Below the pieces are notes generated by a model that had not been told where the DNA came from, ran no database searches, and saw only the letters and a list, made by a program, of their open reading frames with translations. 41,053 bases of DNA from Lentisphaeria bacterium (lineage in GTDB: Bacteria; Verrucomicrobiota; Lentisphaeria; JABSQK01; JAWLHB01): contig JAWLHB010000059.1 in NCBI GenBank assembly GCA_041690595.1, positions 1 to 41,053 of the forward strand, given 5' to 3'. Of this stretch, positions 6,586-33,665 are shown piece by piece. Within the stretch, counting starts at the first letter, position 1. Each line of letters opens with the position of its first letter. A program made the translations under genes and the position numbers.

Positions 6586-6779
6586 TGGCATGTCGTGTCA
6601 GTTCCCCACCCAGATGGGAATGCGAATCCAAGGCCTACAAGCATTTCAGCCTACAGATTCGGGAAGCCTCGAGGTGGTATACGTCTACGAACGCACACTG
6701 GCCAGATTGACCGCCCTCTAGGAAGAACAAGCTAGACCCCTGAACGAATCCACTGCAATTGTAGGAGCGAAAGCGCGTG

Positions 6780-6825
6780 CGAGCATCGAGCATCGAGCAT
6801 CGAGCATCGAGCATCGAGCATCGAG
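6780..6825. repeat. Heptanucleotide tandem repeat (CGAGCAT)x6.5
   Basis: Six perfect GAGCATC units at 6781-6822 plus partial units. Confidence 0.95.
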
Positions 6826-7021: not shown

Positions 7022-7068
7022 ATTAAATGCAAACACCGTGTTGCAATGGTGATGCATTTAATTAGGAT
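7022..7068 (+). promoter_or_regulatory. Putative sigma70 promoter of the dpd operon embedded in an inverted repeat (operator)
   Basis: ATTAAATGCA (7022-7031) and TGCATTTAAT (7053-7062) are perfect arms with inner CACC/GGTG. TTGCAA (7041-7046), a 16-bp spacer and TAGGAT (7063-7068) lie just upstream of the first operon gene. Confidence 0.55.
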
Positions 7069-7082
7069 ATGTCTCGAATGTC

Positions 7083-8084
7083 ATGGAACAAAAAATGCCA
7101 TCGAGACTCTACGACTTCAGCCTCATTACTGCCTGCACGGCCCGCAAGCGGGTCCCGGCGCACCCGCGGCTAAACGCATGTGATTTGCCTAATGGCACTC
7201 AAGAGGCGGTCCTTGGTGCCTGGATGGGACAACTGGAGTCCGTGACCTCCGCAACACCCGTGCCGGGGCGCCTTGCAAGTCGAACTTACTGCGGCCGAGG
7301 TTTCGCGGAAGCACTGACCGCAGCGGGAGAGAAGAGCGCGCTTTATGTTGTGTCAGCGGGGCTCGGGCTGATTCGTTCAACCGACATAATTCCTTCTTAC
7401 GCCTTGACCGTAGCGGGAAAGGGAAGGGACAACATCGCGGCAAAGGTAGCTGGGTTCAACCTCACCGACTGGTGGACTGGCCTCAGGGATTCACCTTGCT
7501 CGGTGGGCGATGTTAAGCAGGCCTTCAAGGATAGCGGTTCGGTCGTCATTGTGGCGGTTCCGCATACCTACTATTTGATGATAGAACGCGAACTGAATTT
7601 GCTGGAACACCGCAATCGCGAACGACTGCGCATCGTCGGTGTGGCGCCATCAAAGGTGGCACACTCACTCCAGAAGTACGTTATGCCATTCGATGAGAGA
7701 TTGGACGGTCCCGACAGTCCGATTCCGGGGACGAAAGCAGATTTTTCGCAACGTGCTGGTCGTTACCTCATTGAGCATGTGATCGCAGAGGCCCCAATGA
7801 ACTCCGCAGACGAACACGCGCGTCGCGTGCGCGAATTAGTTCGCGCTTGGCGAAGACCACAGAAGCGCCGTCGGCAAAAGCTTTCAGACGATGAAGTTAA
7901 ATCTCAGATCAGGAACTCCTGGGACGCTGTGGAGGGGCGTAGTTCGATCATGCTCCGTTACTTCCGCGATAACTTGGGAGTTGCCTGCGAGCAGACGAGA
8001 TTCAAAAACCTATTCAAAGAAGTGGCGATCGAGCGGGAGGCAACAAATGAGTGGATACATACGTGTCCGAGCATTACGAACTAG
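7083..8084 (+). CDS. YaaA/DUF6884-like protein, probable DpdC-type accessory factor
   Basis: ITACTARK...A...YCGRGF...LYVVSAGLGLI..IPSYALT resembles the YaaA-like fold. It is the first gene of the dpdA operon, and DpdC is known to carry YaaA-like similarity. Confidence 0.55.
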   Translation: MEQKMPSRLYDFSLITACTARKRVPAHPRLNACDLPNGTQEAVLGAWMGQLESVTSATPVPGRLASRTYCGRGFAEALTAAGEKSALYVVSAGLGLIRSTDIIPSYALTVAGKGRDNIAAKVAGFNLTDWWTGLRDSPCSVGDVKQAFKDSGSVVIVAVPHTYYLMIERELNLLEHRNRERLRIVGVAPSKVAHSLQKYVMPFDERLDGPDSPIPGTKADFSQRAGRYLIEHVIAEAPMNSADEHARRVRELVRAWRRPQKRRRQKLSDDEVKSQIRNSWDAVEGRSSIMLRYFRDNLGVACEQTRFKNLFKEVAIEREATNEWIHTCPSITN

Positions 8085-9171
8085 GCAGGGAGATGGGCTG
8101 GAGTTGTACTCGTTCTTTATTCCGGGAGCCAAGGTCTCTGAGATTGCAGACATTAGTCGCATTCATCGGGACCACAAGGAAGAACTGCAGGGATTTCAAC
8201 GCAAGGAAATTAAGAATCACGTCAAGGCGATCGTAGAGTACCTGAATCAGGGAAATGTCCTATTCCCCAATGCCATCATCCTGGCGCTTGCGCCGGAGAT
8301 TGAGTTTAAGCAAGCAAGAGGGCGAGCGCCTGAGGGCGCTTTGGAAGTCGGTGAGATTGGAACACTCTCCATTCCTGTTCGAAAACCGGGAGATCGCGTC
8401 GCATGGATTGTAGATGGTCAGCAGCGATCATTGGCGCTATCGAAAAGCACCAATCAATCGTTGCCAGTGCCAGTCATCGCGTTTGTGGCAGAGGACCTGG
8501 AAACGCAGCGGGAGCAGTTCATCCTCGTGAATAAGGCGAAGCCGCTGCCCTCCCAGCTAATCAATGAGCTACTACCTGAGGTGGATCGACGACTTCCCAG
8601 AGATCTGGCCATTCGGCGAATTCCGAGCGAACTATGCAACTTGCTAAATCGCGACCCCGACTCGCCTTTCTATGGCTTCATCAAGCGGGCATCAACCAGT
8701 GGCGACAAAGAAGCAGTCATTTCGGACACTTCAGTGATGGATATGATCAGCCGGTCGCTTGGCAATCCGCTAGGGGCGTTGTCCCAGTTCAAGGGACTTG
8801 GCACGGAACCGTCTGATGTCGAAAGCATGTACAAAATCTTGGTTCTGTTCTGGAACGAAGTAAAGACCGTGTTTCCCGAGGCGTGGGGACGCACACCGGC
8901 CAAGAGTCGCCTAATGCATGGAGCGGGCATCAAGGCTATGGGCGTGCTCATGGACCGGGTGGTGTCGCGCGCGATGACCTCGCGCAATCCACAGAAGGCT
9001 ATACGCAGTGCATTACAGAGTATCGCCGCTCAGTGTTGCTGGACTGAGGGCACGTGGGATGACCTGGGCCTAGGCTGGCGCGAGATTCAGAACGTGCCGC
9101 GCCACGTAAAGGCGCTTTCGGAACAGCTACTGCGCCTGGACTATGCCGCCTCCCAGGAAAGGGTGGCGTGA
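8047..9171 (+). CDS. dpdB: DGQHR-domain (DndB/DpdB-like) protein, copy 1
   Basis: Start at ATG 8047 after GGGAGG. Motifs GFQR.EI..HV..I..YL, FPNAIILA, IVDGQQR and QFILVN.AKPL. Adjacent to dpdA. Confidence 0.82.
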   Translation: MSGYIRVRALRTRQGDGLELYSFFIPGAKVSEIADISRIHRDHKEELQGFQRKEIKNHVKAIVEYLNQGNVLFPNAIILALAPEIEFKQARGRAPEGALEVGEIGTLSIPVRKPGDRVAWIVDGQQRSLALSKSTNQSLPVPVIAFVAEDLETQREQFILVNKAKPLPSQLINELLPEVDRRLPRDLAIRRIPSELCNLLNRDPDSPFYGFIKRASTSGDKEAVISDTSVMDMISRSLGNPLGALSQFKGLGTEPSDVESMYKILVLFWNEVKTVFPEAWGRTPAKSRLMHGAGIKAMGVLMDRVVSRAMTSRNPQKAIRSALQSIAAQCCWTEGTWDDLGLGWREIQNVPRHVKALSEQLLRLDYAASQERVA

Positions 9172-10445
9172 AGTTTATCTACGCAGATAGCCTTGATTAC
9201 GTCGACCCACGCTTCGACTTCCTGCGCGATGAGTTTGCGCCGCGGCGACGTCCCTACTGGGACGATGTGTTTGCCCACGAACTCTTTCCCGCTCCACCCT
9301 ATGACGGACTGCTAGTCACTCGGGCCCTCATGGGAGGCGCCAGCGCCTCCGGAAAATACACCGAAAGCCAGACCATGCGATTTATGCGAGACGGCGCTAG
9401 GGAGTTTCTGCGACTCTCTGATGCACGCTTCGATGATTTCCTCCTCTTTGGCGACTGTGGTGCGTTCACCTACCACCAGTTGGACAGTCCGCCATATTCG
9501 CCAAGCGAAATGGTGGAGTTTTACCAGTACTCGGGTTTCACGCACGGGTGTTCGATTGACCACATTGTCTTCGAGTACGGTGATGATTCAGCAGGCTCTG
9601 AGGAAGCCAAGCGTCGTTATGAGATCACGCTCGACCTCGCGGACGCGTTTATCGCTGAGCATCGTCGACAGAGCGCCTCGTTTACACCCATCGGAGTCGT
9701 ACAAGGGTGGTCAGCTGAAAGTATGGCATCAGCTGCGCGCTCGCTATTGAAGATGGGCTTTCGCTACCTTGCAATTGGGGGATTAGTGCCGCTCAAGATG
9801 CCTGCGATTCGGGAAGCGGTTGCCGCGGTCCACGGAGCCATTGCTATCGAGCGGGACGCACGTATCCATTTGCTCGGATTTGCCAAGGCTGAGCACATCG
9901 GTGAACTGAAGCAGTATCGGGTAGCAAGCTTCGATTCCACCTCACCTCTGCTACGGGCGTTCAAGGACAACACTCGAAACTATTGGACCACGGGAGAGGG
10001 TTTCGGGCTTAGCCACTACACGGCGATCCGGGTACCCCAGGCGCACGAGAACGTGACACTACAGAACCGCGTCAAGCGTGGCGAAGTATCCCATGAAGCG
10101 CTCATCGCAGCGGAAGCGGACGCGCTGTCTTCGTTGCGCGCGTATGACGTTGGACAGGCCGGACTCGAAGAAACTCTGGATCACGTGATGGCCTACTCTC
10201 GCTACCTGCTCGAATCAAGGATCCTTACCGGTTCGCGCCTCGAACAAAAACTCGAAAAGCTGCGCGCCGTCTATAAGGTGACACTAAGTGAAAAGCCTTG
10301 GCAGCGCTGCACGTGTGTCGTGTGTAGCCAATGCGCTATTGAGGTGATGATCTTCCGCGGCAGCAACCGAAACAAGCGGCGCGGCATGCATAACATGGGC
10401 GTGTTCCACAACTACGTGCAGAGCCTGTCAGGAGCGAGCCGATGA
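9168..10445 (+). CDS. dpdA: DNA 7-deazaguanine transglycosylase DpdA (TGT paralogue)
   Basis: TGT-like motifs GDCGAF, IDHI, GVVQGWS, AIGGLVP, HLLG and SFDSTSP, plus a C-terminal Zn site CxCxxC...H. Lies in an operon with queCDE and DGQHR genes. Confidence 0.9.
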   Translation: MKFIYADSLDYVDPRFDFLRDEFAPRRRPYWDDVFAHELFPAPPYDGLLVTRALMGGASASGKYTESQTMRFMRDGAREFLRLSDARFDDFLLFGDCGAFTYHQLDSPPYSPSEMVEFYQYSGFTHGCSIDHIVFEYGDDSAGSEEAKRRYEITLDLADAFIAEHRRQSASFTPIGVVQGWSAESMASAARSLLKMGFRYLAIGGLVPLKMPAIREAVAAVHGAIAIERDARIHLLGFAKAEHIGELKQYRVASFDSTSPLLRAFKDNTRNYWTTGEGFGLSHYTAIRVPQAHENVTLQNRVKRGEVSHEALIAAEADALSSLRAYDVGQAGLEETLDHVMAYSRYLLESRILTGSRLEQKLEKLRAVYKVTLSEKPWQRCTCVVCSQCAIEVMIFRGSNRNKRRGMHNMGVFHNYVQSLSGASR

Positions 10446-11539
10446 ATACATTCACGTTTCCCGCGCTATTCGCAGAGCAAGGCAAAGATAAGCGTGTGTT
10501 CGTGTTCTGCGCGCCTGCGAAGGACGTGTTGAGCTTTGCGGCGATTGATCGTATCGGGAGAGGTGCGCACGGCGAACTCAAAGGGTTCCAGCGACCACAG
10601 GTTGCGAACCATATCAAGGAGATTCGTGAATACCTCCAACGCGATGATGCTGTACTCCCAAACTCAGTGGTAGTGGCTTTCCTCCAAGGAGTCGATCTGG
10701 TAGCGAAAGCGGGGCAAGCAGGGACCATCAGCATTAGTGCGGACCCCGCAGATCCCCCGGGGTTAGTCGTGGACGGACAGCAGCGGTTATCAGCGTTGGC
10801 GCAGATCCCCCAGTCGGATTTTCAAGTTTTCGTTACGGGCATGCTGGTTGAGGATCCTGATGAACTGCGCAAGCAGTTCATTCTCATAAACAACACCAAG
10901 CCGCTACCGAAAGCACTGATCTACGAATTGTTGCCGACCGTGGATGGTCTACCGCACCGGTTGTCGTCTCGATCCAGGGCAGCTTCTCTCATTGAACGTC
11001 TCAACTACGACGAGGAGTCGTCACTCAAGGGTCAGATCAAGCAGCACACCAATCCCACGGGCGCTATCCAAGACACGGTGATGCAAAAACTCATAATGAG
11101 TTCCTTAGCGGATGGTGTATTACGACGATGTTTCGAGCGAGAGGATGGCGAGACTGAGGCGTTTCGCCTGCTAAGTGAGTTCTTCTCCGCCGTCCAACAG
11201 GTGTTTGCCGATGCGTGGATCGGCCGTATACCTAGAACGTCACGTCTTGTGCATGGGACCGGCATTGTCGCTATGGGCTATGTCATGGAACATCTGTGCG
11301 CCACCGAAGGTGCAATGAAGCAAGCTCAGTTCGCTAAAGGGATGCAGCCGCTCACAGAGAAGGTGCGGTGGACCGCTGGGACCTGGGTGTTTGGGCAGGA
11401 CAATGTCCGCCCCTGGAACTCGCTTCAATTTGTGCCCCGCGACTACATGGAACTCAGCCAATACTTGGTACGGGCGTTGAGACAGGCACAACGTCAAAAA
11501 ACGGCGCCGTTGTCATTAGTAACGGGAGGAGAAACGTGA
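10442..11539 (+). CDS. dpdB: DGQHR-domain (DndB/DpdB-like) protein, copy 2
   Basis: [38 protein letters not shown] and [11 protein letters not shown] motifs. A clear paralogue of 8047..9171. Confidence 0.82.
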
Positions 11540-12237
11540 AAAGGGCGGTAGTTTTGCTGAGTGGCGGATTGGATTCGTCTACTGCATTGGCCATCGCGAG
11601 AGTCGAAGGGTATGAAATTCATGCATTGTCCTTTGACTACGGACAGCGGCATCGAGTTGAACTGAGGGCGGCCCACGATGTGGCTTCCGGTTTGGGCGCT
11701 GTACATCATAAGGTGATTCAGTTGGACCTCCGTGCGATCGGACGATCGGCTTTAACCGATGAGATTGAAGTCCCCAAGAAGCGCTCTGACGCGGAGATCG
11801 CGCACGGCATCCCCGTCACTTACGTGCCGGCGCGAAACACAGTCTTTCTTTCGTATGCCTTGGCATGGGCTGAGGTCCTGGAAACCGGACACATCTTTAT
11901 TGGTGTGAATGCGCTCGATTACAGCGGCTATCCCGATTGCCGCTCGGAGTACATCGATGCCTACCAGGCCATGGCGAATTTAGCTATCAAAAGTGCTGTC
12001 GAGGGCGCTACGCGTATCGAGATTCACACGCCGCTGATCCATCTATCGAAGGCAGCAATCATTCATCGAGGCACAGAACTAGGCGTCGACTATGCACTTA
12101 CCAGCAGCTGCTACGATCCTAGCGAAGCAGGGGAGCCTTGCTCCCAGTGCGACTCCTGCCTCCTTAGAGCGAAGGGTTTTGCTGAAGCGGGTCTTCAAGA
12201 TCCTCTTTTGGCACGGTTCCAAGGAGGGAGTCGATGA
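11536..12237 (+). CDS. queC: 7-cyano-7-deazaguanine (preQ0) synthase QueC
   Basis: GTG start after GGAGGAG. Motifs [32 protein letters not shown] and CY..CSQCDSC. Confidence 0.96.
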
Positions 12238-13325
12238 TGACAGAACGACTCTTCTATATCGCCTTTGCACCCTTTGAGGCTGCGAGGCAGGTTTCGATAT
12301 TGCCGGAAGGACATCCCTCGGCACGGCTCCACGGACACAGTTTCTTGGCAAAGGTACGGGCACGAAACGCCGACAGCTTAGTCGGGGAAGGTGACCGTCT
12401 CGATCAGTTGGGCGAAATGGTCCATAAGGTGGTGGAGCCACTGAACTATCGCCTCCTCAATGAGGTCGTTGATGTGCCCACGGACGAGAATCTGGCGAGG
12501 TATGTTCGTCGCGGGCTGTCACTAACTGAACTCGACCTTGTCGGAATACAGAGCACTCGGGGCCAAGGCGTCGACCTAGACGTGGAAGATACGGCGCACA
12601 TCTGGAAAAGGTTCAGGTTTGAGGCTGCACACCGACTTCCGAATGTGCACGAGGGGCACCCGTGCGGACGAATGCATGGGCACGGCTTCGAGGTGGTGCT
12701 CCATGTGCGTCAAAACGTGAGTTCCATGGATATGGGCGTTCAGTTCGAAACCCTAGAAGCCGCGTGGCATCCGCTGCACCAGCGTCTCAACCGTGCCTGT
12801 CTCAATGAAGTCGCGGGACTAGAGAATCCGACCAGTGAAATGATTGCCAGATGGATCTGGCGAGTGTTGATCGCAGATGTGCCTTCACTGTCCTGGGTAA
12901 GTGTGTTTGAGACGCGCACAGCCGGTTGTCACTTTGACGGTACGAAGTATCGAATCTGGAAAGAACAAACCTTCGAAAGTGCGGTAGCACGCATTCGTAA
13001 CGCCTCCTACGACTACAACTCCTTGCATGGCCACAGCTATCTCATCCGGCTTCATCTCTCGTCGGAACTGGACGAGGTGATGGGGTGGACGGTCGATTAC
13101 GGGGACGTGAAGACCGCGTTCAGGCCGGTGTTCGAACGGCTGGATCATCACGCGCTGCACGAAATTTCTTCGCTAAAGGACACTGATCCTGCGTCGATAC
13201 TGGAATGGGCTCGCCAACAAGCGAGCAATAGCATTCCACAGCTCGATCGAATCGATCTGTTCGAATCACCTTATCGTGGAGCATCGATCAGCTGGGGTGT
13301 CGATCGTCTCGCGTTGCCTGCGTAG
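12234..13325 (+). CDS. queD: 6-carboxytetrahydropterin synthase QueD, three tandem PTPS domains
   Basis: Three T-fold repeats: [65 protein letters not shown]. Confidence 0.88.
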
Positions 13326-13333
13326 CGCGAACC

Positions 13334-13966
13334 ATGTACTCAGTCAAAGAGATCTTTTATACGCTCCAAGGGGAAGGGGCGAACGCTGGTCGAGCTGCGG
13401 TGTTTTGCCGTTTCACCGGGTGCAATCTCTGGAGCGGCCGAGAAATCCACCGCCAGCGCGCGGTTTGTCAGTTCTGTGATACCGACTTTATCGGGACGGA
13501 CGGAATCAACGGTGGAAGATTTGATGGCCCTGTCCCCCTTGCGGACGCGATAGAAAGGCAGTGGCCCAACTCCACTAGAAACAATCGGTTCGTCGTGTTC
13601 ACCGGCGGGGAACCACTGCTTCAATTAGACGGGAGTCTAGTCGCCGAAGTGCGGCAGAGAGGGTTTACGGTTGCGATCGAAACCAATGGAACCAAACCTA
13701 TACCGGAGTTCGTTGATTGGGTCTGCGTAAGTCCAAAGGCTGGAGCACCACTAGTCGTCCATCGAGGCGATGAGATTAAGTTCGTGTATCCCCAACGAGG
13801 CTTCGACCCGGCAGAGGTGTGCGACCTGGCGTTCGACAATTTCTATATCCAGCCGATGGATGGTCCAAATTGTTCCGAGAACTGCAAGTTGTCTATAGAG
13901 TATTGTTTAGCTCATCCAAAATGGCGCCTCAGCCTACAGATGCATAAGGTGTTGGGGATCGGCTAG
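13334..13966 (+). CDS. queE: 7-carboxy-7-deazaguanine synthase QueE (radical SAM, Cx14CxxC type)
   Basis: YSVKEIFYTLQGEG, C-NLWSGREIHRQRAV-CQFCDT, TGGEPLLQ, IETNG, SPK and WRLSLQMHK motifs. Confidence 0.96.
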   Translation: MYSVKEIFYTLQGEGANAGRAAVFCRFTGCNLWSGREIHRQRAVCQFCDTDFIGTDGINGGRFDGPVPLADAIERQWPNSTRNNRFVVFTGGEPLLQLDGSLVAEVRQRGFTVAIETNGTKPIPEFVDWVCVSPKAGAPLVVHRGDEIKFVYPQRGFDPAEVCDLAFDNFYIQPMDGPNCSENCKLSIEYCLAHPKWRLSLQMHKVLGIG

Positions 13967-14158
13967 GCGACCGCGATCGACAGAACTTTTGTCCCATCCG
14001 CATGCAGTCGGTCTGCGTCGGGTTAGGAGAAATTTGATGTTTGGCCAGAGCTTTGGGATCCCCTGGGGGGCGCTCGGCTTGCTCAATCGAGCAGTTGTGC
14101 TCGAAAAACCTAACGTTGGGGACGCGACAACGTTGAACCCATCCAGGCGTCAATTGAG

Positions 14159-24172: not shown

Positions 24173-24903
24173 CCGAAGCGGACTTGCAAGCAAACCACGA
24201 CACGTCCGGTGAAGACCTCCTCGAAATGCTAGAGGGACTTGCCGTACGGTTACCCGAGGCTATTCGAGAGCGCGATGCGGGTGACGCTTTGCGCGCAACG
24301 GACGAGGCGGTCGTGCAAGCGGAGGCGGACATCGCTATGTTGGAGCGGCTCGCAGGTATCCTCACTCTTGCCCAGGAGAGCATTGGAGCCGACGAACGCG
24401 TGCGCCTCCAGGAAGATGTCCTCGAACTCGAGCACGCCGGCGACGTCATCAGCGCCGCCGCCAATGCCCAGACGCTCGACGCAGCCGCGGAGGAGTTGTC
24501 GAGTCTGCCCAACCGCGTACAACTAGTCGAAAGAGTTATCTCCCGGGCCTGGCAGGCGCGTGTCGATGGAACCTTCGGTGCAAGCGATGGACTCGGTCGT
24601 GTTCTGCAAGAGATCCCGGAGACGCGAAATCTCGGAGCCAAGATTTCTAGACTTCATGCAGAAGCTATCGCACTTAAACATAGACAAGATGACGCTGATA
24701 CCCTAGCCGAAGCTTTCGCTCAGTTTCAGACGCAACTAAGCAGGTTCCACGCAGAACTTGCTCGAGTTGGAGCAAGCAAAGAGGTAGTCGACTTTCTGGT
24801 TGCAGTGTCCGAGCGCGAGTCACGGCTTGACATGGTCACTGATGAAGTTAGGGGCTGGCTCTTTGATCGAAATGCGTTGCGACTCTTCAAGATCAGCCTT
24901 TAG
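24169..24903 (+). CDS. dpdI: DpdI-like helical protein
   Basis: ATG at 24169 overlaps the dpdH stop. 244 aa, helix-like composition. Call based on position and size only. Confidence 0.5.
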   Translation: MTEADLQANHDTSGEDLLEMLEGLAVRLPEAIRERDAGDALRATDEAVVQAEADIAMLERLAGILTLAQESIGADERVRLQEDVLELEHAGDVISAAANAQTLDAAAEELSSLPNRVQLVERVISRAWQARVDGTFGASDGLGRVLQEIPETRNLGAKISRLHAEAIALKHRQDDADTLAEAFAQFQTQLSRFHAELARVGASKEVVDFLVAVSERESRLDMVTDEVRGWLFDRNALRLFKISL

Positions 24904-24951
24904 TAGCGGCAGTGAAGATGAGCGACATTAATCGCTTTTCGATGGCAACGT

Positions 24952-27900
24952 TCACCCTCCAACCGCGATTCCGGGCTCGAATCGCAGAAATCGCTCGAGT
25001 AAGGCTCGACTCAGTAGAGCCTCCGATACGAGGCCCGAGACGACATCGCTACCAACATGGAGACAGCCCTGACAGCCGTCGACACACAGGCGGCCACTCA
25101 AGCGGTAGGCTTGATCGGCGACCCGCGCCGCGCCGCTCAGTGACTCCTCCTGCGAAGCTCCTTCAAGCGTCTCATACGCCGCGAGCAGGCGGGTGAACTC
25201 GGGAGTATCCTCCGAACAGGACCGCGCTGCACTAACGACTGCACTCGTGAGCTCCCAGGTAGAGGGCTGACGCTCCAGACGCTCTACGAGACGCGCCCCG
25301 ACCGCGCGCGTCTCCGCAAACAGGTCGAATCGGGCGAAGCGTTCGTGGCCCGCGCTTTCGTGACCGAAGAGCAAGGTTACGATGCCCTGGACAAAAGTAT
25401 CGTTCGTGCGTGCGTCGACGCCAAGCTCTCCAAACAGCGCCTCCAGCTGTTCGGAGTCGCGGACATCCATCGAACGCCAAACTCGGTGGCAGTCTTTTCG
25501 AGCGTGGATCGCGTCTATGAGCGCGTCTTCGCGCGCGTTTGGACATTCAACCAAGGCGCCATCCCGCCACTCTTCGAGCACTGAATCGATGTTCTCGATG
25601 AAAGTGCGGGTCGTTCCGTCGCCATGCGCACCCGTCTCCGCGACGGTGATCGTATCCTCGGCCTCCGCGCCGAACTGCACGGGAAGTTTTGCGTGGCAGA
25701 GCACGCGGCGCTCCTCGCCACGCCCATGCAGAACGAACCACTGCTTCACGCGTACAGCGAGGCTATGCAGGAGGACGCTACGCAAATAAGCCTCTACTGC
25801 TTCTCGCGAACGTAGCTGCTCGAGTGCGGAGCTGAAGAGTGTACGAAACCGGTGGTCGCCGAGACTTCTCCCAAGACGCTCAACGCGTGACGGTGTTAGC
25901 AGCGGATGGTGCGAGAGCAGTTCTTCATAGGTTTGCCTCAGCAGGTCCAGTAGCCGCGTCGAGTCCCAGCGTCGTAGCAGACGGCGGAGTTTATCCCGAA
26001 GTTCGGGGGGACCAGCGGCGCTAAAGAGCAACTCTGCGGCGCGCTCTGCCTCGTAACCGTTTAGGCCCGCCGAGCGAGACCTCGAGCCGATGAGATATCG
26101 TAGAAACTGCCCGCGGTGCCATCGTCCGTCCGAGCTCTCGGCTAGCCGTGCCGCCTCGTCGCGCACGAATTTTCCCACTCGTTCCGAATCGAGGTGTAGC
26201 CGGATCCCTTCGGTCTCTACCTGGTAGCCATGGAGGAGCGTCTGGCCGCCATTCGGGTGAACGAAGACCTGAGTCATCGGAACGTCTTCCATGTCCGGGT
26301 CCATGAGACGAAGTTCGGCGTCAGCGCCCCAGTTCACCCGGCCAATCGTGAGTCCGGTGCGGCCTCCGGCGGCATCATTGCCGCGAAACGATAGCGCCCT
26401 CGGGAACAGCCAATCGAATCCTGCGAGAGATAGTGTCCGGCCCCGAGCATCATCGGATAGAACCCAACTCGCGCCGCGAAGTTGCGCCTGGCTCTTGTGG
26501 TGAACAAGCAACCCACGAGCATGCGAGTCGCCTGGCTCGATGCGGGACAGATGTCTCGTGTTCGGATCAAACACCCAGTCCGCCAACCAGTCTGCACCGC
26601 GCATTCGCCCGGCCGTCCGCAGCGGGACCCTATGCGGAAGGTATACGCCAGGATAGGGGTTCGGCCCGATCTCCTCCCGGATCTCTGATGGCAGTTCGTT
26701 CAAAAGTGCATCGATACCACCTCCATGGAAGGACTCCGGTAGCGCAACCGTTTCCACGTCTGTCCAGGGTGCCCGGCCGTCGATGGGAACAGTCCAGTGG
26801 AGATGATGGACCCCATAGCGTCGAGTGATGTTGCCGGGTGTAGCGGCGTCGAAGGCTATATCGATTGGTTCCTCGCGTTCGTCTTCGCTGCCTTCGAACG
26901 CAACTACAATCGAAGGTAGGTTCACCTCTTCAAAGAGAACGTCCGGTACCCACGGCAAGATCTGTCTCCAAGCGCGCGGCTCGGCCTTCAATGGGATTGG
27001 CGCTACCGCCGAACCAACAGCACTTGCCCAGAAGTGGGAGAGGTCAACTACCTGAAGCGTCTTGTAAATCCGATCTCCGCAGACCGCCCGAACGGCACGG
27101 TCGGCGTCAGCTAACAGTGCCGGTTCCAGCAAGAGACCATCGGACCCAGTTATTACGCCAGATCCAAGGTCTCTTGCGCGGTGGCGAGCGATGTAATCGA
27201 GGAGCACCGCGAGCACCTGGCCACGGACCACAAAGTAGTTTTCTAGATTGACAGGGACTTCGAACCCTGAAGCATCCAGCATTCGCGCGGGCCGGCGAAA
27301 GTACCAAGAGTCGCGCGGCGAGTACGGAGATAGGGTTACACCGGTGACAGGACGGTCGTCAGCACCTCGACCGCCTCGGCCCTTGCGTTGAATGAAGCTC
27401 GCGAGGTTACCCGGTGCGTAGTGCTGGTACACGAGCGTCATGTCGGGGTCATCGTAGCCGACCTCGAGAGAGGAGGTAGCAAAGACGACGTCGCTGCGTC
27501 GAATCATCTCCTCGACCCGCCCGCCCGTGCCTGAGAAGACCGGCCGGTCCGCAACAATAACGTGGCGGCCCGGGAAGTAGTTACCGGATGCTGTGGTCTG
27601 CGCAGTGTCCGTCGCTGCGAAGTACCAGCACTCACCGTCGCGGAAAGTGTCACAGGTCGCAGGGTCACGGCAGCACTCGCGGCGCGGGATTCCGGATGCT
27701 GGGTCATCGTCGTAGAGGCGGGTGCGGTAGCTCGCGAGGCGCTTGCCCTCCTCAGCGTCCTGGTAGTCGCCATGCAGGCGCTTGAGTTTGTCAATTGAGT
27801 CAAGAAAGACAATCCCACGGTAGCCGCCGCTGGCTCCTGAGCGGCGACGCATCCCGTGGGCGAGGCACATCAGTGCCTGGATCGTCGTCGCAGCGCCCGC

Positions 27901-30900
27901 GATGTCCTTGCCACGAGACTCTACTTCGGGTTGCACGAAGTAGAAGTACTCTCGCCCGCGAGGATTGATTTCGCGCTCCTCGGGCTCTGGACGGATATCA
28001 ACGACGTGCGGGCGACCTGTCAACGCACCCCACACCTTTGCGGGGCGCCCGAGCGTTGCGCTCATGCCGATGGCGAGAACTGGAGGAGCGTCGTTAGCGT
28101 TAAGTGTAGCCCGCGCGAGGAGTCTCCGAAGGGCGTAGCCGACCTGCGAGCCGTGGATATGCGTGTAGAGATGGATCTCATCGGCTACTACCGCGCGCGG
28201 AGGCTCGAAACCGGGACGATCGCCGAAGAGCGCACCGTATTGGCTGTCCTGCTGCCACTGGTGCAGCGACTCCGTCACCGGAAGAAAGAAGTCAGGCGGA
28301 CGCTCGCGCATACCAGCCTTGGTTCCAACCCAGCCGGCGTAACTCCAACCGCAACTGCAGGTCAACCGATCGGCACCGCCTTCGCCATCGCCAGGCAGGA
28401 GGGTGAGGTCGCCATCACACGCGGGGCAGCCGAAAAAAGGAAAACTCAGGCCGCCCCGAGTTACAGGCGACCAGAGGTCAGCAATTGACGAGTGCACCCG
28501 ATCGAAGACTTGTGGAACCTGGCCATTCTGGAGCCCGATTCGCAGCGTGGGCATCCCATCGCGGACGGCAAGAGCCGCAAGATATCCGACCAGACGCTGG
28601 GCCTGATTGGCGCCGAGGCGTATCCGCGGATAGACGAGAACAGCGCGTGTGCCCTCCCGCCCTTCAAGCGCGTCACACGTGGCTCCTGCGATGAGCGGCA
28701 GCAAGGCGGCTTCGGTTTTGCCTGAACCAGTATCGGCAGTCACCACGAAGGTGTCTTCCGTACTGACGCCCCGCCACGACGTAAACAACTGCTGCAGCGC
28801 ACGCCTCTGAAAGCCCGCGAGAACTGGATCGTCGTCCTGCCACACATCGCGCAGCATGGCGGCCACACCTTCCAAGGCGCTCGCACCAACCGGGTCGCCT
28901 GCGGTGGCATGGCTGACTTCGCCGACCACGCTCGAAAGCCGAGAGTCGCGAACAGGCTTGTCGCGCGACTTGAGTTCCACCTTAAGTGCGCGAACGAGAT
29001 ACGGGCGACGACTCGCATCGTCGGTTCGAAATCGCTGTTTCACGTAGCGAACCTCGCGTGCAAGTTCAGCCATGCGGCTGCGTACGCGGCCGTCGGCATC
29101 CAAAAGTACGTAACCTGCGGTGGCGAGTTCATTGATCGCATCCATCACTTCCCGACGTCCACGGCCCAGTGCCTGTGCGAGCTCCGGAGGTGATGACCAG
29201 GACTCGAAGACGCCAAAGTTGATCCGCCTTGCCTCCATGTCCTCGAGTTCGTTTAGAACCTCGAACGATGCATCCACCACGGGTGTCGCCTCGACCTCCG
29301 ACACCAGCGCGGGGGCCTCGTCGATCCAGTCGATCGTTTCGCTACCATCTTTGACTTCGAGCCGGACGACACCCTCGCGTACAAGCAATTCGACAAGAGG
29401 GTGTAGTACATCTTCACCCCCCACTCCGACCCAGACGAACTGTCCCTTCACCTGGTCATAAAAGGGCGGTAGCTGTGTGGTTCGTACGGTGGCGATCGCC
29501 TCCTCTAGTCGCACACGCACCGTGTCTGCACGGACCGGAAACGGGATCTGTGGCGGATCCACCGGGCGCACTGCCCAGAAATCTCCGTGTCTGCCCCGGC
29601 GACGGTACAAGCGCACGTGACCTAGACGAAGTAGATCGCGCAGATCGGACACAGGTATCTCGCGCAAGAGTTCTCGTTCTAGATCAAAAGTCGCTGCGGT
29701 GCCATACGGGTTCTGGAGGGCGAGTTCACGTACCTTGTCGAGAAGTTCTTCGAGTTCTGGGACCATCACCGGCAGCGATTCGTCTTCCTCCGGTGTCGAC
29801 TCAGTTCGCTCAGGCAGTTCGGGCGGCAACGCGCCAGGGAAACCGCGCACCCGGATCGAGACCAGAGCGGATCCGTGTTGCGGATCGCGGAGCATTATGC
29901 TGCCTATTTCGACGGCATTGTAGACAAACTCACGCACGATCTGCGCCGCGTCCAGGATCCCCTCGTCCGGCGGCACCACTTCCATTAGCCGGCGACTGAT
30001 AATCAGCACAAGCTTCGTGCGAGCACGTGTGATGCTTACGTTGAATCGCTCGGTGCTGAAAAGAAACTCAGCTTCGGCCAGAGCGAACTCCGGATCGGAG
30101 ACGGTGTAGGACACAATCACCGCATCACGCTCTTTGCCCTGGATGCGATCGACCGTTTCCACCACTGGAGCAACACCTCCGGGATCGAGAGCGAGTGCAG
30201 ATCGAATTGCCGCGTTCTGCGCCCGGTGTGGACTCACAACGGCCAGGCGGTCCTGCCAGAACCCCTCAGGTGTCACTCCAGGGCTCGGCGCCATCGCCGC
30301 GCGAAACCGCTCGACCAGGCGGGCGGTGATGTTGACCTCGAACGGGTTGACGGTGCCGGCTGGCGCCGCTTCGTGAAGGAGCACGCAAACTGGTACATCA
30401 GGATCGAGGACCACACGCTCCCAGTCCTCGAGTCCAGCTTCCCAGCCATCACGCAGCGCGAGACGGCGCTCCGCCACGTCGTCAGCCGAGCGATAGCGCC
30501 CAGGGTAGAACTTTGTCTCCGGGAACGACGTGAGCGGCGCGTTTAGTCGGAACGTCTCGTCAAGCGCGAACTCCGCTACGTTGCCCTGTTTCAAGAAGTC
30601 GTACAGCGAGCCGCCGATCCGGCGGCCGTCCACTTCCTGTTCATGAATCGCCCGTACTGGCGGCAACTGCTTATCATCGCCAGCTACAAGTACACGACCG
30701 TGCGGGCGCAACGCCGCAAGCGCCATTAATCCCTGGCTTACAACGAGTTGTGATGCCTCGTCGATGCAGACCAAGTCGAAGATGGGTGCCGTGCGCCCGT
30801 CGTTGTCCTGCCCGAGCCCTTCCGAGAGCATCCGCCCCAGCGTCCAGACCGTGCAACCGACCACGAGCCCGGGTCTGTCGAGGCGTTCTGCAGCTCGCCG

Positions 30901-31371
30901 GATCGCCCGCCGCCCGCGCACTCTAACGTGCTCGACAGTGTCGGAGAGTCCGGCTGCGGGTGCGTTTCCAATGTAAAGCACTTCGGGGGGGTGATCGAGA
31001 TGAGCTACCGCCTTCTCGGCGACGGCATCGAGGAGATTACCGATCGCATTCAGCGTGAAGGCCGTGACGAATATCCGGCACGGGGATCCTGCGCGCCGTC
31101 GCGCCTCGGCGTAGCCTAGCGCCATCCACGACAGAGCATATGTCTTTCCGGTGCCGGGCGGACCAAGGACGAGCCCGGCCCGGTGCGATGCTAACCCATC
31201 CCATGCCGCGACCTGTGAGGGACGAAGCGGTGGGTCTCCGCTAGCCGCGAGAGCGGGTGTCGCCACCTCAGTCATTCCACGCATCCAGCACTCGGCGTCG
31301 CCTTCATCGAGGGTCGCCGCGAAAGCCCTCGGATCACGAAGAAACTCGAGGATGTCTGCGCGCACCGACAT
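24952..31371 (-). CDS. Dual-helicase fusion: N-terminal DNA2/NAM7-type SF1 helicase + C-terminal DpdJ-like DEAD/DEAH SF2 helicase with terminal Cys cluster
   Basis: SF1 motifs: GPPGTGKT, IDEASQ, GDDKQLPP, SPHRAQ, TVDRIQGKE, RFNVSITRAR. SF2 motifs: ADTGSGKTEA, CPAC, DEIH, SAT, TSSLEVGYD, QRKGRGGR. C-terminal CVDGCQGC. Start at ATG 31371 (alternative TTG 31383). Confidence 0.85.
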   Translation of the reverse strand: MSVRADILEFLRDPRAFAATLDEGDAECWMRGMTEVATPALAASGDPPLRPSQVAAWDGLASHRAGLVLGPPGTGKTYALSWMALGYAEARRRAGSPCRIFVTAFTLNAIGNLLDAVAEKAVAHLDHPPEVLYIGNAPAAGLSDTVEHVRVRGRRAIRRAAERLDRPGLVVGCTVWTLGRMLSEGLGQDNDGRTAPIFDLVCIDEASQLVVSQGLMALAALRPHGRVLVAGDDKQLPPVRAIHEQEVDGRRIGGSLYDFLKQGNVAEFALDETFRLNAPLTSFPETKFYPGRYRSADDVAERRLALRDGWEAGLEDWERVVLDPDVPVCVLLHEAAPAGTVNPFEVNITARLVERFRAAMAPSPGVTPEGFWQDRLAVVSPHRAQNAAIRSALALDPGGVAPVVETVDRIQGKERDAVIVSYTVSDPEFALAEAEFLFSTERFNVSITRARTKLVLIISRRLMEVVPPDEGILDAAQIVREFVYNAVEIGSIMLRDPQHGSALVSIRVRGFPGALPPELPERTESTPEEDESLPVMVPELEELLDKVRELALQNPYGTAATFDLERELLREIPVSDLRDLLRLGHVRLYRRRGRHGDFWAVRPVDPPQIPFPVRADTVRVRLEEAIATVRTTQLPPFYDQVKGQFVWVGVGGEDVLHPLVELLVREGVVRLEVKDGSETIDWIDEAPALVSEVEATPVVDASFEVLNELEDMEARRINFGVFESWSSPPELAQALGRGRREVMDAINELATAGYVLLDADGRVRSRMAELAREVRYVKQRFRTDDASRRPYLVRALKVELKSRDKPVRDSRLSSVVGEVSHATAGDPVGASALEGVAAMLRDVWQDDDPVLAGFQRRALQQLFTSWRGVSTEDTFVVTADTGSGKTEAALLPLIAGATCDALEGREGTRAVLVYPRIRLGANQAQRLVGYLAALAVRDGMPTLRIGLQNGQVPQVFDRVHSSIADLWSPVTRGGLSFPFFGCPACDGDLTLLPGDGEGGADRLTCSCGWSYAGWVGTKAGMRERPPDFFLPVTESLHQWQQDSQYGALFGDRPGFEPPRAVVADEIHLYTHIHGSQVGYALRRLLARATLNANDAPPVLAIGMSATLGRPAKVWGALTGRPHVVDIRPEPEEREINPRGREYFYFVQPEVESRGKDIAGAATTIQALMCLAHGMRRRSGASGGYRGIVFLDSIDKLKRLHGDYQDAEEGKRLASYRTRLYDDDPASGIPRRECCRDPATCDTFRDGECWYFAATDTAQTTASGNYFPGRHVIVADRPVFSGTGGRVEEMIRRSDVVFATSSLEVGYDDPDMTLVYQHYAPGNLASFIQRKGRGGRGADDRPVTGVTLSPYSPRDSWYFRRPARMLDASGFEVPVNLENYFVVRGQVLAVLLDYIARHRARDLGSGVITGSDGLLLEPALLADADRAVRAVCGDRIYKTLQVVDLSHFWASAVGSAVAPIPLKAEPRAWRQILPWVPDVLFEEVNLPSIVVAFEGSEDEREEPIDIAFDAATPGNITRRYGVHHLHWTVPIDGRAPWTDVETVALPESFHGGGIDALLNELPSEIREEIGPNPYPGVYLPHRVPLRTAGRMRGADWLADWVFDPNTRHLSRIEPGDSHARGLLVHHKSQAQLRGASWVLSDDARGRTLSLAGFDWLFPRALSFRGNDAAGGRTGLTIGRVNWGADAELRLMDPDMEDVPMTQVFVHPNGGQTLLHGYQVETEGIRLHLDSERVGKFVRDEAARLAESSDGRWHRGQFLRYLIGSRSRSAGLNGYEAERAAELLFSAAGPPELRDKLRRLLRRWDSTRLLDLLRQTYEELLSHHPLLTPSRVERLGRSLGDHRFRTLFSSALEQLRSREAVEAYLRSVLLHSLAVRVKQWFVLHGRGEERRVLCHAKLPVQFGAEAEDTITVAETGAHGDGTTRTFIENIDSVLEEWRDGALVECPNAREDALIDAIHARKDCHRVWRSMDVRDSEQLEALFGELGVDARTNDTFVQGIVTLLFGHESAGHERFARFDLFAETRAVGARLVERLERQPSTWELTSAVVSAARSCSEDTPEFTRLLAAYETLEGASQEESLSGAARVADQAYRLSGRLCVDGCQGCLHVGSDVVSGLVSEALLSRALLERFLRFEPGIAVGG

Positions 31372-31376
31372 CCGCT

Positions 31377-33665
31377 CTAGCAACCGCTACTGAGGTAGGC
31401 CAAGAAATCTGCTGCGCGCTGGGTGGTGAAATCCTTGAACGTGCGGTCGAGGTACCATTCACGGTCGTCGCATTCACGCAGAAGTCGGTCGAACTCTGGT
31501 GCCTCGTAGACGCTGGGGTAGATGTTCACTAACAGCGTACTAGGACCGTACTCAATCCGCTCTTCCGCAATCTGAACTTCGAAGCTCGGCCAGAACTGAG
31601 GATTGAGGCGAATATCGGGGTCATCGTTGGTGAGGATGAGATCCAGGTTTGTCGAATTGAGCTCACTCTCGCGACTTTCCGGCGGTACGTCGAAATGCAT
31701 CCAGTACCCGCGTGCGTTTTGCCCAGAGCGCCTAAGTGTCATTTGCGGAATGCACCGTGCGCGGTCACGGCGCTGGCGCCATGGCCGCGCGAGCTCGACT
31801 AGAGCCTCCAGCAGACCAGCGCGATTCTCGAGCAGCTCGAAGGCGCGGAGCATGTCCAGGTCGATGACGTCGAGTGGATCAAACGTCTCTTGGAACTGGA
31901 ACGGGCGCTTTCGAAGGCGCAGAAAGGCTCGATCCTTCGGGCGCGCTTCGGCCGCGGCATTCTCGTGGAGTAGCCATCGCGTGAGATCCCGGATCGCTTC
32001 AAGGCGTTTCCTTACATCTGCGGCGACGGCCTCGGCTGAGACATCGCCTGCGCGCAACTTCCGACAGATATCGATTCCAAGTCGCGACGAAAAGGGGCGC
32101 TCGAAGTCTCCGACAGGTTGATACGGTCGACCGTAGCCTGGCACTGTCCGGGCAAGACACTGCGTCACATTGCGCAGGTCGTACGCCACCATCACCGGTA
32201 GGGCGAACAACTGCTCAATAACACTACGCAGAGCGGTCGCCGGGAGGTGATGAACGCCCCGGAATTCGGGCTCGGGTACGATGTCTTCGGGAGGGAAAAT
32301 CCGTACTAGGTTAAGCAAGCCACTGCGCACGACCGGATCTGCGAGATGGCGCCCAACTACCTCTTGGAGGGACACCGCCTCCGATGGCTCAAAAAGAAAG
32401 ATGTGCGCGTGCAGTTGTCCAGGATCGTCGGCATCGAGTTTCTTGTTCGTGCGTTCGATCGCCTCGAGGTCACGGAGCAGGCTGCCCATGATCTCCACTA
32501 GCGCCGCACATTCGCGCGCGGGTGTGGCGTCCGAAAGCGTCGTCACGGCACTGTGCTCGCCATGTGCACCGTCGCGGAGGTAGCCTATCGCTGCCAAGGT
32601 ATTCTCAACTGGATCGACGTCGACTACTAGGTAGAAGCCAACGTCAACCCGCGGTGGCATGAGATAGGAGGATACGTCGGGAATGCGTTGCGGCGCGTCC
32701 TCTACTAGCGCTTGTGCACGCGCCACGAGAGCATCAGCCCGGCGGCTGAGGTTCCAGCTCGATGCGCCCGCAGCACGCAGTCCGCGGGCCGTCGCGAGTT
32801 GCCCCACCTTTCGTACGCCGAGGCGTTGCGCTGCACGCTTGGACTCGTGCGACATTCCTGGCACCGCAGAGACGTCGCGTTGCTCAACGGGGACGTCTAG
32901 CGCGATGTTCTTGCTGCAATGCTGCAAGTAGTCGCACTGCTCGCACTTGAAATAGAGGTGAAAGAACGTGTCGTCGCACTCAGGACTAACTGTTCGCCCA
33001 GCGACCCGAGGAACATGGTACTTGAAGAAATCGAGCACGAGTCTCGTGTAGGGCGCCAGGTTAAACGACTCGACTCGGTAGTCGCCGTCTTGGCCACTCG
33101 AACCGGCCTGAAGGCACCAAATCTCGGCCTTTGGTGCTACCCGCGCCTCGACCCGCCACCGCAACAAAAGAGATTCGAGCATGAGGCCATAGAACGCAAC
33201 CTGAGCCTTGTGAAACGGAGTAGAACGCTGCGTCGCCTTGATATCGATCGGGACTAGTAGACGACTACTGCCATCACGCTCTTCGCGGACAAGATCTGCA
33301 TAGCAGCGCCGAATCGAGACATCGTCAGGAAGTTGCAGTCGGACCCGCAACTGATCGCAAGGGTTGAGAATGAGCTGGTGCGCTAGTGTTTCCTGCCGTT
33401 TCCCCACAATAAAGGCCATGGATTGCGCCTCTGAGAGAAACTCCTCTGAGGGTGTAGGCATGAGCAAACGCTCGGTGCGAGCGAGCTTCGCCACAACTTG
33501 ACGTTCGAATTCCGTACCGAGTTGCGCCCAGGGCGCTGCGCGAACCTCTTTCACAATCGATGCCGCTTCGCGTTCTTTCCCCGACATCATTTCGTAGCGA
33601 GTCTTTCGCTCGCAGCGGTATTGGAACCACGACTTCACCGTAGAGGCGCTCAGCGCGAGGCTCAT
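31377..33665 (-). CDS. RecB/Cas4/Dna2-like PD-(D/E)XK nuclease (TM0106-like architecture)
   Basis: N-terminal Cys (YRCERK), ADLV...IDIK..QVAFY nuclease motifs and CEQCDYLQHC, giving four likely Fe-S ligands. Followed by an HhH-like VPGMS..LGVRKVGQLA and further domains. Confidence 0.78.
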   Translation of the reverse strand: MSLALSASTVKSWFQYRCERKTRYEMMSGKEREAASIVKEVRAAPWAQLGTEFERQVVAKLARTERLLMPTPSEEFLSEAQSMAFIVGKRQETLAHQLILNPCDQLRVRLQLPDDVSIRRCYADLVREERDGSSRLLVPIDIKATQRSTPFHKAQVAFYGLMLESLLLRWRVEARVAPKAEIWCLQAGSSGQDGDYRVESFNLAPYTRLVLDFFKYHVPRVAGRTVSPECDDTFFHLYFKCEQCDYLQHCSKNIALDVPVEQRDVSAVPGMSHESKRAAQRLGVRKVGQLATARGLRAAGASSWNLSRRADALVARAQALVEDAPQRIPDVSSYLMPPRVDVGFYLVVDVDPVENTLAAIGYLRDGAHGEHSAVTTLSDATPARECAALVEIMGSLLRDLEAIERTNKKLDADDPGQLHAHIFLFEPSEAVSLQEVVGRHLADPVVRSGLLNLVRIFPPEDIVPEPEFRGVHHLPATALRSVIEQLFALPVMVAYDLRNVTQCLARTVPGYGRPYQPVGDFERPFSSRLGIDICRKLRAGDVSAEAVAADVRKRLEAIRDLTRWLLHENAAAEARPKDRAFLRLRKRPFQFQETFDPLDVIDLDMLRAFELLENRAGLLEALVELARPWRQRRDRARCIPQMTLRRSGQNARGYWMHFDVPPESRESELNSTNLDLILTNDDPDIRLNPQFWPSFEVQIAEERIEYGPSTLLVNIYPSVYEAPEFDRLLRECDDREWYLDRTFKDFTTQRAADFLAYLSSGC

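Follow-up and report, generated by a model that had tools for sequence, protein, structure and literature searches.

The 41,053-nucleotide (nt) stretch of a Lentisphaeria bacterium studied here (assembly GCA_041690595.1, contig JAWLHB010000059.1; hereafter the window) carries an island of genes of the Dpd type. Very probably it is a complete Dpd-type restriction-modification island that represents a distinct and recurrent subtype, in which a Dna2-like nuclease and a DpdJ helicase extended by a motor of helicase superfamily 1B (SF1B::DpdJ) stand in place of DpdK and DpdD. The window is the whole of contig C59 of an 8.1-Mb genome (G000) that consists of 99 contigs and is 97% complete.

DpdK, DpdD and the nuclease-helicase pair

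The island contains 14 uninterrupted open reading frames (ORFs) between positions 7083 and 33665, whose family identities were obtained from PADLOC, NCBIfam and Pfam profile scans (Table 1). The plus strand carries, in this order, dpdC, dpdB, dpdA, dpdB, queC, queD, queE, dpdE, dpdF, dpdG, dpdH and an ORF at the position of dpdI. Two genes on the minus strand converge on this operon: that of a 762-amino-acid (aa) nuclease, followed by that of the 2139-aa SF1B::DpdJ protein (24952-31371), which we refer to as the long DpdJ. The genes are tightly packed. Start and stop codons overlap by 4 nt at eight junctions of the island, dpdC and dpdB overlap by 38 nt, queD and queE are 8 nt apart and queE and dpdE 192 nt apart, and the stop codon of the nuclease gene lies 5 nt from the ATG of the long DpdJ gene. 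A preliminary description of this DNA had claimed 14 intact ORFs and a translationally coupled plus-strand operon, and this is what we observe: none of the 14 frames has an internal stop, and the plus-strand genes mostly overlap. Scans of the window with the hidden Markov models (HMMs) of PADLOC and NCBIfam bore out that the island is of the Dpd type.

Of the components by which a Dpd system is recognised, DpdA, DpdB and DpdC are present, and DpdK and DpdD are missing. The DpdD HMM had no match in the 97%-complete window genome. The best match of the DpdK HMM reached 21.9 bits (cut-off 100) and corresponds to a 385-aa protein with two phospholipase D (PLD) domains on contig C41, which has no dpd genes among its neighbours. 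When DpdD, DpdK and DpdI of two canonical islands were used as tblastn queries against the window genome, the best E-value was 0.23, and 0.73 for DpdD. The negative HMM results are informative because the same models score in two DpdA-positive genomes without the nuclease that served as positive controls. In G363, which belongs to the same phylum as the window genome, and in G572, DpdD was detected with 554 and 556 bits, and DpdK with 175 and 203 bits, respectively. DpdK or DpdD above the cut-off was found in none of the six nuclease-bearing genomes (G000 and G401-G405); weak PLD matches of about 22 bits, below the threshold, were present in G000 and G405. The absence of DpdK and DpdD, noted before for the window, thus extends to the whole genome. 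We also considered whether the nuclease is itself a diverged DpdD, and rejected this at the sequence level (best BLAST E-value 1.1; no match to a PADLOC DpdD model at E <= 10). In the canonical-type island of G363, the DpdK match (C284:2433-2948) lies in a 1748-aa open frame, which DpdJ and DpdK may share in that genome.

The nuclease has both the motifs and the fold of the Cas4/RecB-family PD-(D/E)xK nucleases with a 4Fe-4S cluster, in agreement with the earlier proposal of a RecB-family Fe-S nuclease. Its AlphaFold model, computed from 44 sequences with a mean predicted local distance difference test score (pLDDT) of 87, consists of a Cas4-like PD-(D/E)xK Fe-S domain (residues 1-255) followed by a helical linker, a DEDD/DnaQ exonuclease fold (residues 340-587), and stalk helices with a beta-barrel (residues 600-760). 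The first domain resembles Cas4 (7mi4_A, Z 14.2, root-mean-square deviation (rmsd) 3.4 over 187 aa; 8d3l_I, Z 13.3) and also matches AdnAB (6ppu_A, Z 10.2) and AddB (3u44_B, Z 9.3), and Foldseek returned Cas4 (1.8e-4) and Dna2 (3.4e-4). The motifs are D124, D141-I-K143 and Q155...Y159, and the candidate Fe-S ligands are C18 and C241-x2-C244-x5-C250. Residues D124, K143, Q155, Y159, C241, C244 and C250 are invariant in the 44 sequences, and for D141 and C18 the conservation is 90% or more. We take a D...(D/E)xK motif, a QxxxY motif, and one N-terminal cysteine plus CxxCx5C to be the defining motifs of Cas4/RecB-family Fe-S nucleases. The nuclease scores 40.2 bits with TIGR03491, the model of the TM0106 family of RecB-like nucleases, and falls outside that family (cut-off 97.45); its N-terminal part alone reaches 22.2 bits with PF12705 (cut-off 22). 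No Dpd model of PADLOC v2.0.0 matches it at E <= 10, the PADLOC Cas4 models give E-values of 0.03-0.4, and its profile has no match at E <= 1 among PDB chain sequences.

The DEDD-fold domain is predicted to be a second nuclease-fold domain: it matches the exonuclease domain of PolB (5mdn_B, Z 13.7), and the aspartates D349 and D351, with which the first strand ends, are invariant. For the C-terminal domain, which was also folded alone (pLDDT 78), the best fold matches are the barrel and stalk of Upf1-like SF1B helicases (Setx, Z 8.9; Sen1, 8.3; Ighmbp2, 7.7), and it also matches residues 461-568 of Dna2 (5ean_A, Z 8.4, rmsd 3.3 over 104 aa). Generic barrels score lower than these Upf1-like modules (Z <= 6.8).

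The long DpdJ combines an SF1B helicase of the Upf1/Dna2 type with a YprA-family superfamily 2 (SF2) helicase core, so that the fusion of an SF1 helicase with DpdJ read from the letters of the window was correct. The PADLOC model PDLC02895, a DpdJ model of 2112 positions, matches the protein with 1950 bits over model positions 1-2108; this end-to-end match means that the SF1B::DpdJ form is already contained in a defence-system database. The best solved relative of the SF1B half is the helicase domain of mouse DNA2 (5eax, E 2.8e-20). In 30 sequences, the Walker A (GPPGTGKT) and Walker B (DE) motifs of the SF1B half, and TGSGKT and DEIH of the SF2 half, are invariant, and the C-terminus carries an invariant C-x3-C-x2-C-x-H cluster. 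The SF2 core is 26% identical to canonical DpdJ (E 2e-52), and the island contains no other DpdJ.

Three lines of evidence, namely the adjacency and coupling of the two genes, the existence of fused forms and a docking model, indicate that the nuclease and the long DpdJ act as one. The fused forms came from a profile search with the nuclease in a library of 1.84 billion representatives. Among the best 150 matches, 30 are at least 1100 aa long, and all 11 long relatives that were scanned have AAA_11/AAA_12 SF1 helicase domains directly after the nuclease part. One protein of this public library, P0301 (3312 aa), is a fusion of both minus-strand proteins of the window in one chain, with the nuclease at residues 131-879, the SF1B helicase at 929-1373 and the DpdJ core from about residue 1790; it scores 826 bits with PDLC02895. 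Five other fusions were analysed with PADLOC. Their helicase part fits the N-terminus of the model for the long DpdJ (163-257 bits) better than any other PADLOC model (Mokosh MkoA, 107-134 bits). When DpdJ residues 1-700 were docked with nuclease residues 575-762, the model obtained a score of 0.76, compared with 0.00 for the best of three controls. Of 157 solved complexes, 116 attained this score, as did 2 of 215 mismatched pairs; these counts apply only roughly here, since our model was computed from our own alignments. The docking runs agreed in at least 62% of the contacts, with a pLDDT of 75 or more for the partner, and the predicted contacts connect nuclease helices 601-616 and 746-761 with DpdJ residues 4-12 and 176-253. 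By sequence and model, the pair looks like a Dna2-like nuclease-helicase that was split after the barrel and whose motor was fused to DpdJ.

Recurrence of the pair and lineage of the restriction genes

A scan for the nuclease with one genome per species yielded eight loci, in Sphingomonas (2), Brevundimonas (2), Methylosinus, and metagenome-assembled genomes of Sphingopyxis, Myxococcota and Rickettsiales. In seven of them a long DpdJ gene directly follows the nuclease gene; the eighth has only a partial match of 270 aa. The seven long DpdJ proteins are 45-48% identical to that of the window over about 2100 residues, dpdH converges on their genes, and in six of the seven loci the start and stop codons of the pair overlap. 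The dpdC-B-A-B-que genes are located within 10 kb in five of these loci, and 16-20 kb away on the same contig in the other two. The Methylosinus chromosome (G403) has the gene order of the window up to dpdH over the stretch that was fetched, and dpdE-F-G-H were found at 39-45% identity in three variant islands. Plasmids gave a similar picture: of 17 DpdA-positive plasmid records, those of Methylobacterium XJLW, Caulobacter S6, Skermanella rosea and Azospirillum brasilense carry the nuclease, each with an adjoining SF1B::DpdJ gene. DpdD was detected in none of these four plasmids and in three other DpdA-positive plasmids.

The minus-strand pair might be a self-contained module of two genes for defence or repair that is just a neighbour of the Dpd island, an arrangement known from defence islands. 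It is encoded on the strand opposite to the other 12 genes, and single-chain nuclease-SF1B relatives without a DpdJ part exist, so such a module can exist alone. Against this, the larger protein contains the DpdJ core, of which the island has no second copy, and DpdK and DpdD exceed their cut-offs in 0/6 genomes with the pair and in 2/2 Dpd genomes without it. Moreover, in all 11 other full-length cases examined the pair is situated inside dpd islands, in several arrangements, including one strand shared with dpdCBAB-que. We therefore consider an independent module very unlikely. The same 11 cases answer the question, raised by the preliminary description, of whether the pair accompanies dpdA elsewhere, and its hint that the layout is special to this genome does not hold. 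The type is widespread, with at least 462 nuclease clusters and at least 697 long-DpdJ clusters at 90% identity; the nuclease profile matches 934 representatives (50% identity) at E <= 1e-3 and 183 at E <= 1e-30. Of 401 genomes sampled from the phylum of the window, two had a DpdA above the cut-off, and the class of G401 gave the same figure (2 of 401).

The window proteins were compared with those of variant islands and of the canonical-type island of G572, which has DpdK and DpdD and a B-A-B arrangement (Table 2). The modification proteins are equally similar to both types, whereas the dpdE-J block shows 25-33% identity to the canonical island and 36-51% among variant islands. The subtype is thus not a recent one-gene swap. 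Rather, a whole lineage of restriction operons, with an effector end unlike the canonical one, is combined with a modification module that both types share. The previous proposal of a replaced cutting module is correct in that a replacement is seen; its restriction to the cutting module is not, as the entire dpdE-J block belongs to a separate lineage. PADLOC subfamily models cover DpdF, DpdH and DpdJ over nearly their full length.

Table 2. Identity of window proteins to their counterparts in the canonical-type G572 island and in variant islands.
Protein	Identity to G572	Identity to variant islands
DpdA	46%	40-53%
DpdB copies	51-53%	37-55%
QueE	60%	57-63%
DpdE (full length; three variant islands)	25%	39%
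DpdF	33%	39-45%
DpdG	no match	37-40%
DpdH	26%, N-terminus only	29-43%
DpdJ core	29%	45-51%

The ORF at the dpdI position is probably a very divergent DpdI, judging from its position and sequence. It has tblastn matches of 28-34% identity at the same position in three variant loci and no BLAST similarity to the canonical ORF at the dpdI position; the DpdI HMM has no match genome-wide. The plasmid island of Methylobacterium sp. XJLW (NZ_CP017427.1, 12000-50000) is of the same subtype and lacks dpdE in the stretch examined, from which it follows that dpdE may be dispensable in the variant subtype. This island also carries a gene for a VUT (YhhQ-like) preQ0 transporter.

Could the window island be a non-functional remnant, or a modification-only system whose restriction genes are decaying? 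An insertion sequence (IS) element abuts its left side, and modification-only dpd islands are known, for instance on the Sinorhizobium americanum plasmid and from the GATOR-GC study (PMC12235509). The 14 full-length ORFs with overlapping junctions and no internal stops, the intact motor and nuclease motifs, and the end-to-end alignment with orthologues at 36-51% identity all speak for an intact system, and we regard decay as exceedingly improbable.

Proposed working and relation to known systems

We infer modification of the cell's DNA, restriction of foreign DNA, a physical complex, and the identity of the cutting protein, along the following lines. By extrapolation from Salmonella, whose proteins have been characterised, QueC, QueD and QueE would make preQ0, DpdA and the DpdB ATPase (here two paralogues) would swap guanine in the cell's DNA for preQ0, and DpdC would turn the inserted preQ0 into the amide form, dADG. 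For Salmonella, PMC10164549 states that DpdA and DpdB insert preQ0 into DNA, that DpdC converts dPreQ0 in DNA to dADG, and that the remaining proteins restrict unmodified DNA. In the window, DpdE, DpdF, DpdG, DpdH and the protein encoded at the dpdI position would act with the DpdJ helicase, and DNA would be cut by the Cas4/Dna2-like Fe-S PD-(D/E)xK nuclease instead of the PLD protein DpdK with DpdD. The C-terminal stalk and barrel of the nuclease would dock on the SF1B motor (of the 5'-3' type) at the DpdJ N-terminus. Nuclease, SF1B motor and SF2 DpdJ core would then form one assembly with two different motors that acts on DNA lacking 7-deazaguanine. The core of the preliminary description, a Dpd system that has an Fe-S nuclease with an SF1 motor and no DpdK or DpdD, is supported, and nothing that we found overturns it in full.

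A different division of labour is conceivable, in which the nuclease is an accessory subunit for end processing or scaffolding, possibly silent in vivo, and another Dpd protein cuts. The canonical cutter has not been identified biochemically, PMC10164549 giving the specific roles of DpdD-K as unknown, and the nuclease has a second nuclease-fold domain of uncertain activity in its model. Its PD-(D/E)xK, QxxxY and four-cysteine motifs are nevertheless invariant or nearly so in 44 sequences, PADLOC, Pfam and NCBIfam detect no other nuclease domain in the island, and the genomes that carry the nuclease are precisely those that lack the PLD protein DpdK. We therefore judge an accessory role to be unlikely.

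Several observations weigh against the reading of the island as a complete system with a docked Dna2-like effector. DpdE, DpdF, DpdG, DpdH and DpdJ have their best matches among Dpd models, yet remain below the NCBIfam equivalog cut-offs (Table 1). The ORF at the dpdI position has no significant match to PADLOC, Pfam or NCBIfam HMMs, and the island lacks folE. On the structural side, the DEDD-fold domain alone has no Pfam match and only a chance match in PDB. The Z-scores of 7.7-8.9 of the barrel are near the range common for unrelated models, and Foldseek finds nothing at E <= 1e-3 for this C-terminal domain. The favourable docking score may reflect likeness to solved Dna2/Upf1-like single-chain structures rather than binding. 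Finally, the sample of genomic contexts is small, comprising 11 loci that are mostly from Alphaproteobacteria and whose members are related.

Like the canonical Dpd systems of the Salmonella Montevideo type, the island has DpdA, DpdB, DpdC, preQ0 genes, DpdE-H and a YprA-family DpdJ, and it would follow the same logic, with 7-deazaguanine marking the cell's own DNA and unmarked DNA being restricted. On the Enterobacter cloacae plasmid pPOL9A, the canonical gene order is dpdE-F-G-H-(I)-J-K-D. The window differs in that it has neither the PLD protein DpdK nor DpdD, that a Cas4/Dna2-like Fe-S nuclease gene is located upstream of dpdJ, and that DpdJ has an added N-terminal SF1B helicase while retaining the C-terminal Cys/His cluster. 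Identity of its DpdE-J proteins to canonical counterparts is no more than 23-33%. Variation in dpd gene content has been recorded before. The GATOR-GC paper (PMC12235509) gives 146 dpd compositions and 801 extra dpdB copies, finds that dpdD and dpdI cluster with dpdAB more rarely than the other genes, and counts islands without dpdD; according to PMC5699537, dpdD occurs in 90% of genomes with dpdA.

The BRIGADE systems of haloarchaea are a further parallel. According to the preprint on YprA helicases by Bell et al. (10.1101/2025.09.15.676423), these Dpd-like 7-deazaguanine systems sometimes have a PD-(D/E)xK nuclease instead of the PLD one, and DNA2-like fusions also occur; they have been reported solely from halophilic archaea and are defined by ARMADA-like YprA helicases with a BrxA-like insert. 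The window system likewise has a PD-(D/E)xK nuclease in the stead of a PLD nuclease. It differs in that its helicase fits the bacterial Dpd branch, and in that the Dna2-like unit is split and its motor fused to DpdJ. Table S1 of this preprint lists the XJLW plasmid relative of the long DpdJ as a 'Dpd-like helicase' and not as BRIGADE, and the text speaks of 'many uncharacterized ... Dpd-like classes'. A full-text search of the literature, part of which was open only in extracts, returned no text on the nuclease or on the SF1 fusion in bacterial Dpd systems. The earlier suspicion that the layout was undescribed is thus correct for the nuclease and the SF1 fusion, which those extracts do not name, and incorrect for the long DpdJ, which is catalogued as PDLC02895 and as a 'Dpd-like helicase'. 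What is new here is the domain make-up of the nuclease, its predicted docking on SF1B, and the single-chain nuclease-SF1B and nuclease-SF1B-DpdJ forms; the island type is widespread, barely described and only partly catalogued.

Eukaryotic Dna2 (5eax, 5ean) has the same order of a PD-(D/E)xK nuclease with a four-cysteine Fe-S cluster, a beta-barrel with stalk, and an SF1B helicase. Dna2 proper has these parts in one polypeptide; the window system is encoded by two genes, although single-chain relatives exist, has an inserted DEDD-fold domain, and has its helicase fused to an SF2 helicase. The likeness to Dna2 is one of fold and order, not of orthology. MrfA/MrfB (YprA/YprB) likewise pairs a YprA-family helicase with a DEDD-fold exonuclease, and MrfB (8un9_B) aligns to nuclease residues 329-571 (Z 10.0, rmsd 4.4, 171 aa). 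The main nuclease of the window is, in contrast, of the Cas4 type, and many unrelated DEDD exonucleases score as high as MrfB or higher.

AddAB, AdnAB and RecBCD are also built from two motors and Fe-S nuclease domains of the RecB family, but their subunit make-up is different, and the second motor in the window is a YprA-type SF2 helicase. Judging only from family membership, the SF1B and SF2 motors presumably have opposite polarity. It is possible, though somewhat doubtful, that nuclease, SF1B and SF2 form a bipolar AddAB/RecBCD-like machine that loads on DNA and degrades it processively unless it meets 7-deazaguanine. Dpd restriction would in that case be a translocation-coupled degradation, with the modified base as a 'stop' signal for self. 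In that case, too, the effector end of Dpd would be a swappable cassette, with the PLD protein DpdK plus DpdD as one version and a captured Dna2-like nuclease-helicase as the other, and the variant subtype, whose enzymology can be recognised, would offer the simplest way into the mechanism of Dpd restriction. The subtype swaps the two least understood components at the end of Dpd for a nuclease-helicase of a well-studied type, which points to DpdJ as the site of cutting. The series from a split pair to nuclease-SF1B and nuclease-SF1B-DpdJ chains illustrates neatly how a defence system captures an enzyme of the repair type. At NCBI, the XJLW island is annotated with names for dpdA, dpdB and the que genes only, and the other parts are 'hypothetical' or 'AAA domain-containing'. 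Because of such annotations and the lack of a PADLOC model for the nuclease, Dpd surveys are likely to count too few complete systems or to list these as effector-less.

Modification genes and surroundings of the island

The positions of the island genes are given in Table 1. DpdA, both DpdB copies, QueC, QueD and QueE all score above their NCBIfam cut-offs. The gene previously called 'YaaA-like' is dpdC, whose product is described as DUF328-like in PMC5699537. Each dpdB copy has a separate orthologue in related loci (49-55% identity), and two dpdB copies in a B-A-B arrangement are also found in canonical-type islands such as that of G572.

Table 1. Genes and gene parts of the Dpd island, with positions in the window.
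Feature	Position	Strand	Profile match
dpdC (DUF328/YaaA-like)	7083..8084	+	PADLOC PDLC02815, 275 bits; faint YaaA match, E 0.07
dpdB copy 1 (DGQHR/ParB-like ATPase)	8047..9171	+	NF041060, 467 bits, cut-off 300; ATG at 8047
dpdA (DNA guanine transglycosylase, TGT-like)	9168..10445	+	NF041059, 512 bits, cut-off 200; PDLC02807, 504 bits
dpdB copy 2	10442..11539	+	NF041060, 384 bits, cut-off 300
queC	11536..12237	+	PF06508, 254 bits; TIGR00364, 210 bits
queD (three tandem PTPS-like units, 363 aa)	12234..13325	+	PF01242 in three stretches
queE (Cx14CxxC type)	13334..13966	+	TIGR04508, 336 bits, cut-off 240
dpdE (SNF2/RapA-like helicase), variant lineage	14159..17431	+	NF041062, 346 bits, cut-off 500
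dpdF (RecQ-like SF2 helicase), variant lineage	17428..20007	+	PDLC02862, 636 bits; NF041063, 478 bits, cut-off 550
dpdG, variant lineage	20004..20894	+	NF041064, 75 bits, cut-off 80
dpdH (large P-loop ATPase), variant lineage	20891..24172	+	PDLC02884, 557 bits; NF041065, 301 bits, cut-off 450
244-aa ORF at dpdI position	24169..24903	+	NF041066, E 0.09, 12.7 bits, co-linear C-terminal alignment
long DpdJ, YprA-family SF2 helicase core (C-terminal ~1440 aa)	24952..29271	-	NF041067 (DpdJ), 330 bits, cut-off 800, residues 710-1404
long DpdJ, SF1B (Upf1/Dna2-like) helicase (N-terminal 700 aa)	29272..31371	-	Pfam AAA_11, AAA_12, AAA_19, AAA_30
762-aa nuclease	31377..33665	-	TIGR03491 (scores in text)

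The thirds of the queD product match one another in a self-BLAST (E 6e-18, 3e-13 and 1e-3). Elsewhere, QueD is a single unit of about 126 aa on the Methylobacterium plasmid and appears to consist of about two units in G572. A second, housekeeping-like queC is present on contig C47 (59684-60355), with 39% identity to the island copy, and the island thus duplicates part of the preQ0 pathway of its host.

Two ORFs next to the nuclease gene (33498-34100 and 34097-34975) were considered as parts of the system and rejected, having no family matches and no counterparts in related loci. The window contains no tRNA gene, and no terminator-like site was detected between the convergent operons, where a hairpin is no more stable than in shuffled sequence. 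The G+C content is 55.3% in the block of modification and que genes (7083-13966) and 61% in the dpdE-I block and the minus-strand pair, compared with 61.5% for the genome and 64-66% for the flanks. These block-by-block differences suggest that the island is a mosaic.

The IS element directly to the left of the island encodes a DDE transposase (DUF772, DDE_Tnp_1_6; 5099-6532, minus strand) and has inverted repeats of 33 nt that are 82% complementary (4967-4999 and 6568-6600). The interval between this element and dpdC contains 6.6 perfect tandem copies of the heptamer CGAGCAT (6780-6825), some 260 nt ahead of the start of dpdC, which could be a slippage-prone tract near the promoter region of the operon. 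The flanks (37574-41052 and 2571-2939) are rich in toxin-antitoxin-like genes. Three PIN-domain ORFs lie in the right-hand flank and a fourth in the left-hand one, and a MazG-like ORF, an HTH_37 protein and an Rv0623-like antitoxin factor are also encoded.

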